Positions 2,351 through 23,663 of a DNA stretch of 27,253 nt are shown in pieces. Where the stretch lies: NCBI GenBank assembly GCA_022866885.1, contig JALHWS010000093.1:1-27253 (forward strand). Reading direction: 5' to 3'. Below the pieces are notes generated by a model, which saw nothing but the letters and a program-made list of their open reading frames with translations, was not told the DNA's origin and did no database searches. Numbering within the stretch: position 1 is the first letter of the stretch; the number at the start of each line of letters is the position of its first letter. The stretch is from Candidatus Microgenomates bacterium. GTDB lineage: Bacteria > Patescibacteriota > Microgenomatia > 2-02-FULL-39-11. Made by a program: the position numbers and the translations under genes.

Positions 2351-3448
2351 ATGAGCAGAAAAATTATTTTTCTCATCATAATTTCGCTTACTGCCATTGG
2401 ATTAATAATGACCGTTTTATTGCGGTCAAATAATTTTTCAGGCGAGTTGATCGTCCCCTTTTCTCAAAATATCATCACGATAAATCCTACAATTCCGCTC
2501 CAAAATGATTTGTATGAAATTCCTTCACTTTCTTTGGATAATATTTTCAAAAGCGATAAGAACTTCTCTTCTTATCCTCCGGAAAAAATTCGCGTTTTGA
2601 TCGCCACCGGCGATGTCATTCCTGCAAGAAGCGTTAATTACCAGGCCAATAGCCGCCGCGATTTCCGCTGGCCGTTTGAGAAAACAGCTGAAGTTTTAGA
2701 AAATGCTGATTTGACTTTGATCAATCTTGAGTCACCGCTTGTCCCCAATTGTCCGCTAACTAACTCGGGAATGATTTTTTGCGGAGATGCAAGAAACATA
2801 GAAGGTCTGACTTTTGCCGGCGTGGATGTGGCCAGTCTCGCCAACAATCATCTTGAAAATTATGGCGAAAAAGGCGTCACTAGCACGGTTAAAGTATTGG
2901 AAGAAACCGGTATTTTACCTGTTCTTGAAAATCAACCGCAGGTCAAAGATGTCCGGGGGCTTCGTTTTGGTTTTGCCGCCTTTCACGACCTGGTCCAGCC
3001 GCAGTTGGCAATCGAAAAAGAATACAGCGATAAAATCGCCTCCCAAGTGGCCGAGCTTAAAAAACAAAGCGATATGGTAATTGTTTCTTTTCACTGGAGC
3101 GCTGAATACACCAGTATTCCCTCCCAGAGACAAAGGGATTTGGCGCATTTGGCTGTGGATAACGGCGCGGATCTTATCATCGGCAACCATCCCCATTGGA
3201 TCCAGCCGGTTGAAATTTATCATGACAAGCTGATCGTTTATGCCCATGGTAATTTTGTTTTTGACCAGATGTGGTCGGAGAAAACCAAAGAAGGAGTTGT
3301 TGGAAAATATACTTTTTTGGATAACCGGCTGATTGATGCCGAATTTCTGCCGGTGAAAATTGTCTACTTCGGCCAACCGTATTTTCTGCAAGACTTCGCA
3401 AAAGAAAAAATCCTAAAAGAGATGAAAGAGGGATCATCGAAGCTATAA
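2351..3448 (+). CDS. CapA-family (PGA_cap) metallophosphoesterase with N-terminal membrane anchor
   Basis: Motifs GDV, NLE.P, LANNH..NYG, SFHWS.EY, GNHPHW.Q, GNFVFDQ. Start moved from the track's TTG 2333 to ATG 2351 because a TACAAT -10 box lies at 2339-2344. Confidence 0.88.
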   Translation: MSRKIIFLIIISLTAIGLIMTVLLRSNNFSGELIVPFSQNIITINPTIPLQNDLYEIPSLSLDNIFKSDKNFSSYPPEKIRVLIATGDVIPARSVNYQANSRRDFRWPFEKTAEVLENADLTLINLESPLVPNCPLTNSGMIFCGDARNIEGLTFAGVDVASLANNHLENYGEKGVTSTVKVLEETGILPVLENQPQVKDVRGLRFGFAAFHDLVQPQLAIEKEYSDKIASQVAELKKQSDMVIVSFHWSAEYTSIPSQRQRDLAHLAVDNGADLIIGNHPHWIQPVEIYHDKLIVYAHGNFVFDQMWSEKTKEGVVGKYTFLDNRLIDAEFLPVKIVYFGQPYFLQDFAKEKILKEMKEGSSKL

Positions 3449-3451
3449 AAC

Positions 3452-3479
3452 AAAACCCCTCCAAATATGGAGAGGTTTT
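3452..3479. terminator. Bidirectional intrinsic terminator-like hairpin
   Basis: AAAACC-C-CTCCA-AATA-TGGAG-A-GGTTTT between convergent genes, with an A-tract and a T-tract on the flanks. Confidence 0.6.
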
Positions 3480-3502
3480 ATTTATAAAATTCGAAGCTAA
3501 AT

Positions 3503-3643
3503 TTAGCCACCGATTTTGTACATTCCGGTTCCGCAAGTCGGACACTTCCCTTTCATTGCCGGTTTGCCGTTTTTCATCGTCACTTTAGTGGCGTTTGGAT
3601 CGTCTCTTTTGGCGCGGCACTTGACGCAATACATTTGTGTCAT
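3503..3643 (-). CDS. DUF5679-family small zinc-ribbon protein (46 aa)
   Basis: Hand-translated MTQMYCVKCRAKRDDPNATKVTMKNGKPAMKGKCPTCGTGMYKIGG*. It has two CxxC motifs and a strong SD (GGGGGTGA) upstream. It is below the ORF track's size cutoff. Confidence 0.85.
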   Translation of the reverse strand: MTQMYCVKCRAKRDDPNATKVTMKNGKPAMKGKCPTCGTGMYKIGG

Positions 3644-19209: not shown

Positions 19210-19278
19210 GACCCCATACAACACTTACCTCCTCCCGAGGTCTACGTCCTCGCGTCGGAGGGGCGTGTATACGGGGTC
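19210..19278 (-). ncRNA. Candidate structured RNA / dispersed structured element, copy 1 (era leader)
   Basis: Minus strand: GACCCC GUAUACAC GCCC CUCC GACG CGAGG ACGUAGA CCUCG GGA GGAG GUAA GUGUUGUAU GGGGUC. It covaries with the copy at 22287-22354. Family not recognised. Confidence 0.55.
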
Positions 19279-19281
19279 TGC

Positions 19282-19310
19282 GGAGTTAGAAGCTTTCAGC
19301 TTCTAACTCC
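19282..19310. repeat. Perfect 13-bp hairpin
   Basis: GGAGTTAGAAGCT-TTC-AGCTTCTAACTCC, abutting a TTGACA box at 19311. Confidence 0.8.
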
Positions 19311-19340
19311 TTGACAAATTATACACTTCTGCTTTAGGAT
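19311..19340. promoter_or_regulatory. Divergent promoter region (era and the small membrane protein gene)
   Basis: Plus strand: TTGACA (19311-19316), 18-nt spacer, TAGGAT (19335-19340). Minus strand: TATAAT (19323-19318) with no clear -35. Confidence 0.55.
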
Positions 19341-19592: not shown

Positions 19593-20846
19593 AATTTTAT
19601 CCACTCCCGTATACTGGCGTAAAATTTCCGGTACGGTCACGCTGCCGTCTTTGTTTTGGTAATTCTCCAAAATGGCAATCAGAATCCGGGGAGATGCCAC
19701 CGCGGTATTGTTTAACGAATGGGTAAATAAGATTTTCCCCTCTTTGGTTTTGTACCGGATATTCAGTCTCCTTGTCTGGAAATCGCCCATGAAAGAATTG
19801 GACATGGTTTCGCCATAAGCCTGCCTCCCCGGCATCCAGGTTTCGATATCGTATTTCTTCACCTGCGGTTCGCCCATATCACCTGTACACATCAGCATCA
19901 CTCTATAAGGAAGCTTCAGATCCTGCAGAATACTTTCGGCGTTCTGGAGTAATTCCTCATGGAGCTTTAAGGAATTTTCATAATCATTTGTGGTTATGAT
20001 CACCTGTTCGATCTTGTTAAACTGGTGCAGCCGGTAAAGGCCTTTGGTATCTTTGCCGTAACTGCCTGCTTCACTTCGGAAACAGGGAGAAAAAGCGACA
20101 AATTTTTTCGGCAGATCTTTTTCAGGTAAAACTTCACCGGAATAATAAGCGGTCACCGGCACTTCGGCTGTCCCTGCCAGATAAATATCGTCTTTTTCCA
20201 GGTGGTAAACCTCATCTCTTCCCCATGGCAGCTGTCCGTTTCCGATCAAAGAGAATTCCTTTACCAAAGACGGGGCAATCAAAGGAGTGTAACCTTTTTT
20301 AATCAGTTTCTGATAGGTATAAAAAAGGATAGCCAGTTCCATCACCGCCGCTTCGTTTTTCAAAAAATATGTCCGGAAACCGCCAACCTTCACTCCCCTT
20401 TCAAAATCCACGAGATCCAGTTTCTTGGCTAAAGCGAGATGGTCTTGTGGAGTGAAATCAAACTTCGGCAACTCTCCCCATTTCTTTATTTCGACATTCC
20501 CGCTGGCGTCTTTCCCCACCGGAACACTCTTATCCGGCACATTTGGCACCTGCAGCATCAGTTCTTTATATTCTTTCTCAATAATTCCCAACTCTTCTTC
20601 TAATGTCTTAATTTCATCTTTTAACTGTCTGCCTTCGTTTTTGGATTTGGGATTTTGTCCGCCAGCTGGCGGATTGAATTTTGAATTTTTATTTCTAATC
20701 GCTCTCTTCTCCTCAATCTCTCCAATCAGCTTCCGTCTCTTTTCATCCACTACAAGCAACCGATCCAGATCCACCTTCCGGTTTTTATCAGCCGCTGCTT
20801 TTTTTACTAATTCCTTATTTTCCCTGATGTATTTAATATCAAGCAT
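19581..20846 (-). CDS. serS: Seryl-tRNA synthetase
   Basis: MLDIKYIREN, coiled-coil arm, PNVPD.SVP.G, LAGTAEVP, FRSEAGSYGKDTKGLYRLHQF.K.EQ, KKYDIETWMP, E..SNS motifs. Confidence 0.97.
   Translation of the reverse strand: MLDIKYIRENKELVKKAAADKNRKVDLDRLLVVDEKRRKLIGEIEEKRAIRNKNSKFNPPAGGQNPKSKNEGRQLKDEIKTLEEELGIIEKEYKELMLQVPNVPDKSVPVGKDASGNVEIKKWGELPKFDFTPQDHLALAKKLDLVDFERGVKVGGFRTYFLKNEAAVMELAILFYTYQKLIKKGYTPLIAPSLVKEFSLIGNGQLPWGRDEVYHLEKDDIYLAGTAEVPVTAYYSGEVLPEKDLPKKFVAFSPCFRSEAGSYGKDTKGLYRLHQFNKIEQVIITTNDYENSLKLHEELLQNAESILQDLKLPYRVMLMCTGDMGEPQVKKYDIETWMPGRQAYGETMSNSFMGDFQTRRLNIRYKTKEGKILFTHSLNNTAVASPRILIAILENYQNKDGSVTVPEILRQYTGVDKISLS
20641..20687. repeat. Heptamer array interrupted by a perfect 16-bp palindrome, inside serS
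   Basis: TTGGATT TGGGATT TTG [TCCGCCAGCTGGCGGA, 20658-20673] TTGAATT TTGAATT; encodes NSKFNPPAGGQNPKSK on the minus strand. Confidence 0.8.
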
Positions 20847-21062: not shown

Positions 21063-22247
21063 ATGAAATTTAGAGTTTATTATTTTCTCTTTCTTATTTT
21101 CTCTCTCTTTTTCCTTCTTCCCTCCCCAATCTTTGCCAAACCTTCTCAACCATTTGCTCCCGATAAAATTCTGGTGAAATTCAGGGAAAACACGCCGGAT
21201 GTTATCAAAGAAAAATTTCAGAAACAATTTGAAACAAAAATAAAAGACAAAATCAGCCGGCTTGATGTCGAGGTTATGCAAATATCACGGAAAAATCTGA
21301 CTGATCTGGTCAACCAATTCCTGCTCTTGCCTTTTATCGAATACGCCGAACCGGATTTTGTGGCAACAACAATGGATGTTCCCAATGACCCTTATTTTAA
21401 TCTTAATCTGCAATGGGGCATGCAAAAGGTGAAAGCGCCGGACGCCTGGAAAATCTCTACAAGTAACCCTGGAGTAAAAATTGCCATTCTGGATACCGGT
21501 ATCGACCGGGATCACGAAGATCTTTCTTCAAAAATCACTGATAATTGGAATTGCACTGACAGTCCTCTTGATGATGATTCATACGGCCATGGCACTCATG
21601 TCGCCGGTATTGCTGCGGCTGCGACTAACAATGGCACCGGTGTCGCCGGTTTAGGTTACAATGCGTCATTAATGAACGTTAAAGTTTTAGGCGATGACGG
21701 TTCAGGCTACTATTCGTGGATTGCCAATTGCATCACTTGGGCGGCTGACAATGGCGCTAAGGTTATCAACATGAGCCTGGGCGGTCCATCCAAATCAAAG
21801 ACTTTGGAAAATGCCGTTAATTACGCTTGGCAAAAAGGTGCCGTTATCGTGGCGGCGGCAGGTAATTCCGGCAACAGTTCGCCTACATACCCTGCTTATT
21901 ACACAAATGTCATTGCGGTGGCCGCCACCGACAGCAACGATAAAAAGGCTTCCTGGTCTTCCTACGGACGCTGGGTGGATGTGGCCGCTCCGGGAGTCGA
22001 TATTTACTCGACTTTCCCCAATCATCCTTATACTATTGGTAAAAAGTTGGGTTATGATTATGGTTCGGGCACTTCCATGGCCACCCCTCATGTCTCCGGC
22101 TTGGCCGCTTTGGTTTGGTCGAGTTCTTTTGGGACGAGTAATGCAAACGTGAGGAAAAGGATCGAGTCAAAAGCGGATAAAATCTCCGGCAGCATTATGT
22201 ATTGGACTTATGGCCGCATCAACGCCCTAAAAGCCGTTTCTCCTTAA
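21063..22247 (+). CDS. Secreted S8 subtilisin (thermitase-like) serine protease
   Basis: Signal peptide MKFRVYY...IFA, propeptide, catalytic triad ILDTG / HGTHVAG / SGTSMATPHV, oxyanion AAAGN. Start at ATG 21063; the track's start lies upstream of the promoter. Confidence 0.93.
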   Translation: MKFRVYYFLFLIFSLFFLLPSPIFAKPSQPFAPDKILVKFRENTPDVIKEKFQKQFETKIKDKISRLDVEVMQISRKNLTDLVNQFLLLPFIEYAEPDFVATTMDVPNDPYFNLNLQWGMQKVKAPDAWKISTSNPGVKIAILDTGIDRDHEDLSSKITDNWNCTDSPLDDDSYGHGTHVAGIAAAATNNGTGVAGLGYNASLMNVKVLGDDGSGYYSWIANCITWAADNGAKVINMSLGGPSKSKTLENAVNYAWQKGAVIVAAAGNSGNSSPTYPAYYTNVIAVAATDSNDKKASWSSYGRWVDVAAPGVDIYSTFPNHPYTIGKKLGYDYGSGTSMATPHVSGLAALVWSSSFGTSNANVRKRIESKADKISGSIMYWTYGRINALKAVSP

Positions 22248-22286
22248 GTCTGTTGTTCACTTAACCACTTATCAGCATCCAACGCG

Positions 22287-22354
22287 GTCCCAGTACAACG
22301 CTTACTTGCTCACATGGTTTACATCCATGCTTCGCAAGGGCGCGTATACGGGAC
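22287..22354 (-). ncRNA. Candidate structured RNA / dispersed structured element, copy 2 (3' of trxB)
   Basis: Minus strand: GUCCC GUAUACGC GCCC UUGC GAAG CAUGG AUGUAAA CCAUG UGA GCAA GUAA GCGUUGUACU GGGAC. Same architecture as 19210-19278. Confidence 0.55.
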
Positions 22355-22376
22355 TCGCTGCACGTTATTTATCAAA

Positions 22377-23327
22377 TCAATTCTTTAAACCATTCTCCTC
22401 CAACCAACGTGAGGCATCCAAAGCGGCCATGGCGCCGAAACCGGCGGAGGTAATGGCCTGTTTATAGCGGTAATCAGCCACGTCGCCGCCAACGAAAACT
22501 CCAGGAATATTGGTAGCCATCCGGTACTTAAGAAGACTTTTTTCATTCTTTACTTCTTTCCGGACGATATATCCTTTTTCATCCAAATCTAATCCTTTAA
22601 AAAGAGTGCTGTTTGGCTTATGTCCGATGGCCAAAAAGACGCCGTCTGTTTTAAACTCTTTTTCATTTCCGGTCTTTACGTCTTTTAACATTAATCCCGT
22701 CAATTTATCAGTTCCCAGATACTTCGTTATTGTTTTATTCCAGATCACCCTGATCTTCGGATTGGCAAAAATCTTCTCCTGCATCGCGCAGGATGCCCGG
22801 AACGAGTCTTTCCGGTGAATAATTGTTACCTTATTGGCTACATGGGAGAGAACTTCCGCTTCCTCCATGGCACTATCACCGCCGCCGATAACGACAACGT
22901 TTTTATTCCTGAAGAAAAAAGCGTCACAGGTGGCACAGGTGGAGATACCTTTCCCCCGGAGTGTCTTTTCCCCCGGCACGTTTAACCAAAGACTGTCAGC
23001 ACCGGTAGTGATAATGATTGATTTTCCCTGATAAGTTTTCCCGCCGGCAGTCGCTTTAAACGGTTGTTTGGAAAAATCAGTCGCGGTGAAATCGGTATTT
23101 ACTATATCTACTCCCAATCTTTCCGCCTGCTTTCTCATGTTTATCATGAGCTGCGGTCCCTGGATGCCTTCGGGGAAACCGGGGAAATTTTCAACCAAAG
23201 TGGTCAGCATCAGTTGTCCGCCCCATTTCGTCCCGGCAATAAGAAGTGTTTTATGTCCTGCTCGGACTGAGTAGATACCGGCAGTTAAACCGGAAGGACC
23301 GGAACCTAAAATAATAATATCATACAT
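22377..23327 (-). CDS. trxB: Thioredoxin-disulfide reductase
   Basis: GSGPSG, GGQLM.T..VENFPG, CATCD, VIGGGDSAMEEA, IHRK, TNIPGVFVGGDV.D..Y.QAITSAG motifs. Confidence 0.96.
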   Translation of the reverse strand: MYDIIILGSGPSGLTAGIYSVRAGHKTLLIAGTKWGGQLMLTTLVENFPGFPEGIQGPQLMINMRKQAERLGVDIVNTDFTATDFSKQPFKATAGGKTYQGKSIIITTGADSLWLNVPGEKTLRGKGISTCATCDAFFFRNKNVVVIGGGDSAMEEAEVLSHVANKVTIIHRKDSFRASCAMQEKIFANPKIRVIWNKTITKYLGTDKLTGLMLKDVKTGNEKEFKTDGVFLAIGHKPNSTLFKGLDLDEKGYIVRKEVKNEKSLLKYRMATNIPGVFVGGDVADYRYKQAITSAGFGAMAALDASRWLEENGLKN

Positions 23328-23339
23328 AAAAAAACAAAT

Positions 23340-23663
23340 TTATTGGATAACTTTCTTAATCTCCTCCACCAGTGTCTCCTTACTCTGCACTCCAATCATC
23401 TGCTTGACGACATTCCCCTTATGAAAAATCATCAGGGTCGGGATGCTCATTACCTGATATTTGGAGGCGGTGGCCGGATTATCATCGACATTCAACTTGA
23501 CGACCTTCACTTTTCCTTCATATTCCTTGGTAATTTCCTCCAAAACCGGCATTTGCATCTGGCATGGCCCGCACCAAACGGCCCAAAAGTCCACCAATAC
23601 CGGTATTGCCGATTTGGTTACTTCCTCATCAAAATTTTTATCAGTAAGAGTAACTTCTGACAT
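23340..23663 (-). CDS. trxA: Thioredoxin
   Basis: VDFWAVWCGPC, VMSIPTL motifs; SD AAGGAGG 7 nt upstream. Confidence 0.96.
   Translation of the reverse strand: MSEVTLTDKNFDEEVTKSAIPVLVDFWAVWCGPCQMQMPVLEEITKEYEGKVKVVKLNVDDNPATASKYQVMSIPTLMIFHKGNVVKQMIGVQSKETLVEEIKKVIQ

Follow-up and report, generated by a model that had tools for sequence, protein, structure and literature searches.

The hairpin that follows trxB in the genome studied here raises the question of why a structured element should stand behind this gene and how it came to be there. The window, by which the whole analysed stretch of 27,253 nucleotides is meant, comes from a Candidatus Microgenomates bacterium with a 1.28-Mb genome that is 92% complete and whose homologues carry Gottesmanbacteria names. 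Within the window, trxB (22377-23327, minus strand; TIGR01292, 361 bits against a cut-off of 343) encodes a thioredoxin-disulfide reductase and is separated by 129 bp (22248-22376) from a convergent gene for a thermitase-like S8 protease (21063-22247, plus strand). An earlier note, made from the sequence alone, had placed the element at 22287-22354, 22 nt past the trxB stop, in the orientation of trxB, in the convergent gap and without a U-tract. Coordinates and scan agree with this description except at one edge, as the fold, the covariation, the score with the covariance model R1 and the boundary analysis define a hairpin proper of 67 nt (22288-22354, minus strand), while position 22287 belongs to the host target.

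Folded as RNA, the minus strand of the trxB-side copy reaches -33.5 kcal/mol (z -6.4) and none of 200 shuffled sequences is equally stable; folded as DNA, it has a z of -5.0. The R1 score is 80.5 bits. The outer part of the hairpin comprises a 5' RY-CCCG outer stem, a 3x3 internal loop (GCY/KAA) and a 3' GGGR end, and the inner part a 5-bp helix, a tandem GA/GA motif around one covarying pair, a bulged G and a 4-5-bp helix, capped in this copy by Y-GTA-R. A second copy in the window lies on the minus strand before era (19212-19277), and the two (19212-19275 and 22289-22352) are 75% identical without gaps. The trxB-side element has no terminator-like site with a T run, and a reading as an intrinsic terminator was rejected because there is no U tract at the element. 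Rfam, searched with the window at E<=1, contains no match to the hairpin; the sole match, a weak one to rnk_pseudo (3444-3533; 34.6 bits, gathering threshold 55), lies elsewhere in the window at a hairpin of terminator type that has a T run and does not belong to the family.

The hairpin belongs to a dispersed family. An iterated profile found 13 good copies in the window genome, where the earlier note knew of two and had rightly expected more, and none in the reversed-genome control; among these 13 copies, 17 of the 21 consensus pairs show two-sided compensatory changes. With the covariance model, copies were detected in 14 of 21 family genomes (0-13 each), together with 15 in another family of the class. 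A phylum-wide draw gave copies in 3 of 151 genomes, all of the same class. Pattern scans returned 95 genome stretches and more than 120 metagenome stretches, with named hosts that are almost all Microgenomates, and removal of duplicates left a working set of 188 distinct copies. Related copies in this set are not independent, so that the counts given below overstate significance and describe a pattern rather than exact probabilities. Viral contigs (two patterns) and collections of phages and plasmids yielded no copies. The literature searched, which consisted mostly of papers available without subscription, gave no description of the hairpin family or of the product structure set out below.

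Copy number, dispersal and the empty sites described below bear out the suggestion of the earlier note that the element is dispersed or mobile. They go with its rejection of an era-specific riboswitch: a riboswitch or other cis-regulatory RNA was set aside on account of unrelated neighbours in both orientations, along with the lack of an Rfam match at E<=1. When the copies were mapped by gene and strand, the 5'-side neighbour was mainly antisense (63 antisense and 25 sense in 88 cases) and the 3'-side neighbour showed no strand bias (70:54, or 70/124), which speaks against the other suggestion of that note, a general RNA processing or stability signal.

The earlier note had missed a second trxB 3' end, which occupies the 44 nt immediately 3' to the hairpin (22287 to 22244, minus strand) and comprises 13 codons, ALDADKWLSEQQT, and a stop codon. 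This stop overlaps that of the S8 protease gene in TTAA, so that the protease stop marks the original end of trxB. The stop overlap predicted for an empty site was found: relatives retrieved via the protease have a 314-aa trxB that overlaps the S8 gene by 4 bp. The displaced end is identical at 42 of 43 nt to the working trxB end of one such empty-site relative, L381, as against 20 of 43 for the working trxB end of its own genome. Removal in silico of 139 bp (22288-22426) restores a sequence that matches the empty site at 94 of 104 positions. From these two results, the displaced end is the original one and the present working end is the newcomer. The insertion thus comprises the incoming trxB 3' end, which forms the present working C-terminus (22377-22426), a 22-nt spacer that came in with the hairpin (22355-22376), and the hairpin at its 3' end. 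The hairpin lies 3' of trxB because DNA was inserted into the trxB 3' end; at this gene it is missing from the 19 other family genomes that have trxB and from the closest empty-site relatives. We regard the architecture of the insertion and the direction of replacement, as read here, as close to certain.

A congener, G001, carries the same cassette. Its trxB shares the foreign end, which is missing from both empty alleles, and its spacer, identical to that in the window, and hairpin together match at 93 of 95 positions, as against 74 of 121 four-fold sites in trxB. The base at which the cassette is joined is likewise the same, but the resident allele behind it is another one, as the G001 relic differs from that of the window genome; among TrxB C-termini, P0123 matches the relic of the window genome (G000) and P0122, a second empty allele, that of G001. 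In both filled genomes the hairpin 3' end meets resident trxB at G^CC (22287/22288, minus strand; trxB nt 901/902; GGGA^C), and the two sequences diverge beginning with the fourth base past it. What they share beyond the joint is too short for ordinary recombination, and the joint therefore either arose on two occasions at this one site or was cut anew there when the cassette was transferred. Two more distant lineages, L106 and L268, use this G^CC step of trxB as well.

The left end differs in kind. At a site 5-7 nt beyond the joint-equivalent base, both filled genomes have an Ala codon and both empty alleles a Cys codon. With the shared Ala codon lying past that base, the left end is a homologous crossover inside trxB. 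An informative-site scan against L381 and G001 places the crossover zone at 22427-22467, with the foreign tract reaching at least trxB nt 895 and the last clearly native site at nt 860. At tsaD, where the element occupies the antisense strand, the working start of the congener equals the relic of the window genome over 17 nt, and divergence reaches about 45 nt past the joint-equivalent base. These comparisons show a product in the order host gene body, foreign gene-end allele, spacer and hairpin^host's original end, with the host gene left intact. The right joint falls at one fixed bond (GGGR^Y), with the left boundary further inside the gene. Two further similarities lie at some distance from the cassette. 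The first 60 nt of trxB (23268-23327) agree at 58 of 60 positions between the window genome and G001, compared with 41 and 46 of 60 for the empty-site relatives, and within trxA (23428-23478) the window genome and G001 are identical at 50 of 50 positions, unlike both empty-site relatives. Recombination has thus left a second patch, some 0.9 kb away from the cassette and perhaps derived from the same donor DNA.

Displaced ends of this kind recur across the family. A diverged direct repeat of nearby upstream DNA begins at the 3' foot in 37 of 105 genome-derived and 23 of 73 held-out metagenome copies (60/178), compared with 1.2-1.4% in a control in which flanks from different loci were paired. 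Relic and working copy agree at the first base after GGGR, a base left out of match finding, in 53 of 60 cases; at R they agree in 33 of 60, and further 5' in 87 of 360. In the target, the joint is followed by a pyrimidine in 56 of 60 cases and preceded by a purine in 47 of 60 (GGGR^Y). Relics measure 13-61 nt with a median identity of 78% to the working copy, 4 of the 60 being identical. Recurrent targets are trxB (both ends), hrcA, uvrA, mutM, polA, ychF, mreB, tsaD, sufB, glycosyltransferase genes and tRNAs. The 41 coding relics (29 antisense starts and 12 sense ends) differ from their working copies at 191 third, 72 first and 32 second codon positions (191/295 third); 147 single changes are synonymous and 36 non-synonymous, where about 21% synonymous would be expected. 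Such a synonymous bias means that relic and working copy are two alleles that both once functioned, not the decayed halves of a duplication. A target-site duplication followed by neutral decay is ruled out by this bias and by the empty alleles. The target duplications that the earlier note thought relatives might reveal are therefore not of the classical identical kind, although the empty sites that it also envisaged do exist; comparison of relics with empty alleles indicates that the apparent duplication is the resident's own allele beside an incoming foreign one.

A promoter class adds 25 copies. A second GTCAAG, the complement of a -35 box, lies within 100 nt 5' of 26 of the 34 copies joined at ^TCAA, as against 6 of 148 others. 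With this class included, 84 of 178 copies have a relic and 94 of 178 have no detectable one. The era copy belongs here: it is joined at G^TCAAG, and a second GTCAAG lies about 35 nt to its 5' side (working -35 box at 19311). At the corresponding TGTCAAG site G001 carries a different and longer insert, for which reason the era -35 box is taken to be a hotspot. The era copy is separated from the working -35 box by a second hairpin (window 19280-19315; L347 7330-7520), and variable second hairpins accompany all promoter-class copies. Larger units also occur. In L133 (3820-5560), 1.7 kb of cargo separates the working ychF start from the hairpin and relic ychF start, and by eye it includes an HNH-like ORF and a gene for a 217-aa membrane protein; this contig, titled Clostridia, may be mis-binned, the element being otherwise specific to Microgenomates. 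Tandem units are found in L106 and L152.

Several features bear on whether DNA or RNA is the active form. One strand is preferred at the foot pairs, with T-G outnumbering C-A by 11 to 3 and G-T outnumbering A-C by 54 to 12. The inner helices contain 1001 Watson-Crick pairs out of 1022 and a single G-T, though the search patterns permitted T-G. The family cap is Y-GNA-R, closed in the main loop type by C-G in 87, T-A in 57, T-G in 5 and C-A in 0 copies, the middle base of the loop being partly fixed by the search patterns. The d(GNA) loops closed by C:G are very stable DNA triloops (PMC3201870). Among five carrier genomes, none has a reverse transcriptase over cut-off and all five have ComEC-family genes. 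The cap, the nearly wobble-free inner helices, the lack of a reverse transcriptase and the presence of ComEC point to folded single-stranded DNA, and in all likelihood the element acts at the DNA rather than the RNA level. Retro-elements such as group II intron derivatives and diversity-generating retroelements were rejected, given that the five carriers lack a reverse transcriptase and that the differences are third-position synonymous and not confined to adenines.

The reading favoured here is that a gene-less single-stranded-DNA hairpin probably spreads by one-ended homing. Donor DNA would be taken up in single-stranded form, with natural transformation as the likeliest route, and would pair by homology with a conserved gene end and displace the resident strand of the same polarity. 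The hairpin would then fold and be bound by a trans-acting enzyme, which would cleave the donor at GGGR^ and the strand that was displaced at R^Y and link the two, leaving the left end to be completed by ordinary recombination. We consider an enzyme-made joint combined with a homologous left end more likely than not. This course of events accounts for a target inside the homologous segment, for a gene that survives and for copies in both orientations. That the relics seen are short (13-61 nt) may reflect a bias, since longer direct repeats would be lost through recombination. The hairpin itself would be a selfish passenger, sometimes with cargo. A bolder proposal, put forward tentatively, is a hitherto undescribed class of mobile DNA with only one defined end, in which a cognate enzyme of the folded single-stranded hairpin joins it to a strand displaced by homologous pairing. 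Were it true, homing by such DNA could reach promoters, tRNAs and essential genes even in distant relatives and exchange the gene end for a foreign one, and kilobase cargo could be delivered to any site chosen by homology alone.

As to the enzyme, a HUH/Y1 tyrosine enzyme is a possible but rather doubtful first guess, with a structure-specific nuclease plus ligase, or a tyrosine recombinase, as alternatives. HUH Y1 enzymes have the cut-and-join chemistry proposed here (PMC6006769, PMC3479197). Y1 genes are present in 16 of 21 family genomes, namely 11 of 11 with at least three copies of the hairpin and 5 of 10 others; across these 21 genomes hairpin copy number correlates with Y1 gene number weakly and with confounding (rho 0.47). 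The two Y1 genes of the window genome (C157 11469-11801 and C104 7249-7521; L203, L224), for about 210-230 aa, each lie in their own inverted repeats, which are unrelated to the hairpin, and the C157 gene resembles the TIRYT consensus of PMC6006769. In an unfiltered scan, none of 29 Y1 loci, a limited sample, was flanked by the hairpin; in L100, one variant copy and a Y1 gene are about 800 bp apart. When the neighbours of copies from genomes and metagenomes were clustered, the groups consisted of conserved housekeeping genes, and no mobilising gene stood beside copies above chance. GIY-YIG genes stand within about 1 kb of a copy in 3 of 44 cases where about 1 is expected, and genes and copies both favour tRNA clusters. 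In one locus (L351 700-2200, the same DNA as L123), a GIY-YIG gene that is enclosed by a 5' fragment and a complete copy of tRNA-Cys lies 380 bp ahead of two hairpin copies; the locus also contains repeated 3' halves of the tRNA and a different family of palindromes. An inverted hairpin pair 540 bp apart in L103 was considered as a mobiliser unit and rejected, since it encloses an unrelated 139-aa ORF. No guide sequence beyond two foot pairs and no conserved guide tetranucleotide was detected.

Among the rival explanations, the order is excised circle, host-only repair and RNA route. An excised mini-circle, cut at the hairpin foot and at a donor R^Y step and carrying gene end, spacer and hairpin for re-integration in an empty allele, would yield the same order of parts and the same fixed joint, and IS608 circles or integron cassettes at attG sites offer precedents. 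The tandem units of L106 and L152 resemble cassette arrays, and the four relics identical to the upstream copy fit as well. For integron cassettes, excision from linear single-stranded DNA in the course of transformation (PMC12614218) and insertion at short GWT sites (bioRxiv 2022.09.11.507474) have been described. A precise circle would nonetheless need a second recombination, as the foreign tract overruns the joint-equivalent base by at least 7 nt in trxB and about 45 nt in tsaD. Further points against it are an AAC/GTT core in only 1 of 188 copies and the lack of an integron integrase over cut-off in the five carriers; we judge the circle unlikely. The route without a dedicated enzyme, in which a stable hairpin blocks 3' trimming of transforming DNA and host repair joins the end, accords with the failure to find a mobiliser, the restriction to one class (3/151 phylum-wide genomes) and the presence of ComEC. 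Fusions by homology-facilitated illegitimate recombination have microhomologies of several bases, whereas the joint here shares only 1-2 bases. The conserved unpaired motifs (GCY/KAA loop, tandem GA, bulged G), moreover, suggest recognition by a protein and not mere stability, and this route seems quite unlikely.

Explanations at the RNA level fare less well. A hairpin-ended transcript might be reverse-spliced or reverse-transcribed into the target and its cDNA resolved by homology; one strand folds better than the other, and retro-insertion typically leaves a 3' joint that is fixed and a 5' end that varies. Such a route is nevertheless very improbable in view of affected neighbours that are mainly antisense starts or promoters (29:12 among coding relics, 63:25 among neighbours), the lack of a reverse transcriptase over cut-off in five carriers, inner helices without G-U pairs and the absence of an Rfam match. 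That the hairpin is selected at transcript ends as an RNA processing or stability signal might be argued from the strong covariation, the sense orientation of the trxB copy and the near identity of spacer and hairpin in G001. This is most improbable, for the hairpin is missing at trxB in the 19 other family genomes and the closest empty-site relatives and occurs in either gene orientation, and the displaced allele and fixed joint would be left without account.

One-ended homing of a DNA hairpin, by contrast with any single known system, combines features of several. The element is a non-autonomous hairpin with an unusual and well-supported insertion product, and by analogy may be likened to a REP or an IS200/IS605 end combined with homology-facilitated integration. 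REPs, REPINs and BIMEs are gene-less, imperfect, intergenic hairpins with one active strand, mismatched bulges and a patchy copy number, and TnpA_REP, which is capable of strand transfer, cleaves single-stranded DNA on the 5' side of a pyrimidine (CT) (PMC3479197, PMC6006769). The likeness to REP/REPIN-RAYT systems lies in an imperfect palindrome with many intergenic copies (13 in the window genome, up to 15 in relatives). Unlike REPs, the present hairpin is longer and three-helical, numbers 13-15 copies at most per genome, and has a 5' GTAG/CGTC tag within 8 nt of the stem in only 3 of 188 copies; unlike in REP-RAYT systems, no Y1 gene among the 29 loci is flanked by it. Its joint is fixed at the foot, where TnpA_REP cuts CT on either side and at a distance, and replacement of host gene ends was not found described for REPs. 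In IS200/IS605 elements (IS608, ISDra2), a single-stranded hairpin positions the cut and the element 3' end is joined to the downstream flank of the target (PMC6006769). The family described here differs in having one hairpin instead of left and right ends and no transposase, in a target that is only R^Y(C) without a conserved tetranucleotide, and in its homology-made other end with a diverged duplication of the gene end.

Integron attC and attG sites share with the hairpin a folded strand with unpaired features, a place at the 3' end of the unit, a crossover near the foot and a short degenerate genomic target, and the integron system works on transforming DNA. The attC core (RYYYAAC...GTTRRRY, G^TT crossover) is, however, found in 1 of 188 copies, the foot here being RYCCCG...GGGR^Y; the target is R^Y and not the G^WT of attG, and the unit consists of the end of a host gene instead of a gene cassette. 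The integron integrase model TIGR02249 stayed below cut-off in all five carriers, which are 85-100% complete. A plus-strand ATCCAAC at about 22277-22283 was rejected as an attC motif, being the complement of relic codons and missing from other copies. Bacterial MITEs (Correia, RUP, BOX) are likewise short non-autonomous inserts near genes, but the present elements lack terminal inverted repeats with an identical duplication of fixed length. Integrative elements that target tRNA genes restore the target with a carried gene end; here, by contrast, there is no integrase, and the targets are dozens of unrelated genes, promoters and tRNAs. Homology-facilitated illegitimate recombination and the one-ended transposition of IS91/ISCR combine a homologous anchor with a non-homologous joint and leave a duplicated, diverged gene end. 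Unlike in those routes, one particular bond of a conserved hairpin is the place of the non-homologous joint here, and the element brings no transposase gene with it.

By what route repeats of this gene-less kind become dispersed in bacterial genomes has long been a question, even for REPs. The family points to an undescribed way for gene-less DNA to spread without breaking essential genes, and since insertion products, empty sites and the exact joint can be read from sequence, the reaction is directly testable. The element rewrites termini and promoters of conserved genes (trxB, tsaD, polA, uvrA, mutM, ychF, hrcA, tRNAs) with alleles of other lineages, which bears on CPR genome evolution. It is also a trap for RNA-motif screens, in which the hairpin would be called a structured RNA. 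If a cognate enzyme exists, homology-guided insertion of a single hairpin with the target gene kept could serve as a genome-writing tool.

Some observations concern the margins of the family. A subclass with a TCAAT 5' foot (L003 1110-1275, L006 790-950, L056, L060, L071, L074, L086, L094) directly follows a terminator-like T run and a second hairpin, often stands 5' of amino-acid biosynthesis genes (ilvD, trpE-like, hisG, cysK-like, argG) and shows no clear relic. In G001, the copy at the cvpA site (L370, near C3 37770) is truncated after 17 nt, where other DNA begins, and at sufB (L367 1374-1394) the hairpin, the relic and the last sufB codons are all missing, which indicates that copies are also lost by imprecise deletion. 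A variant with a CCGCCGAAG-type outer stem (L008 7521-7587, L009 1999-2067, L100 1501-1575) links the family to a more widely distributed GC-rich palindrome, and the L008 variant copy directly abuts the smpB stop. Short palindromes are also read in frame in housekeeping proteins, as in serS (20641-20687, PPAGG) and, as similar inserts, in other ORFs on contigs C59, C65 and C175.
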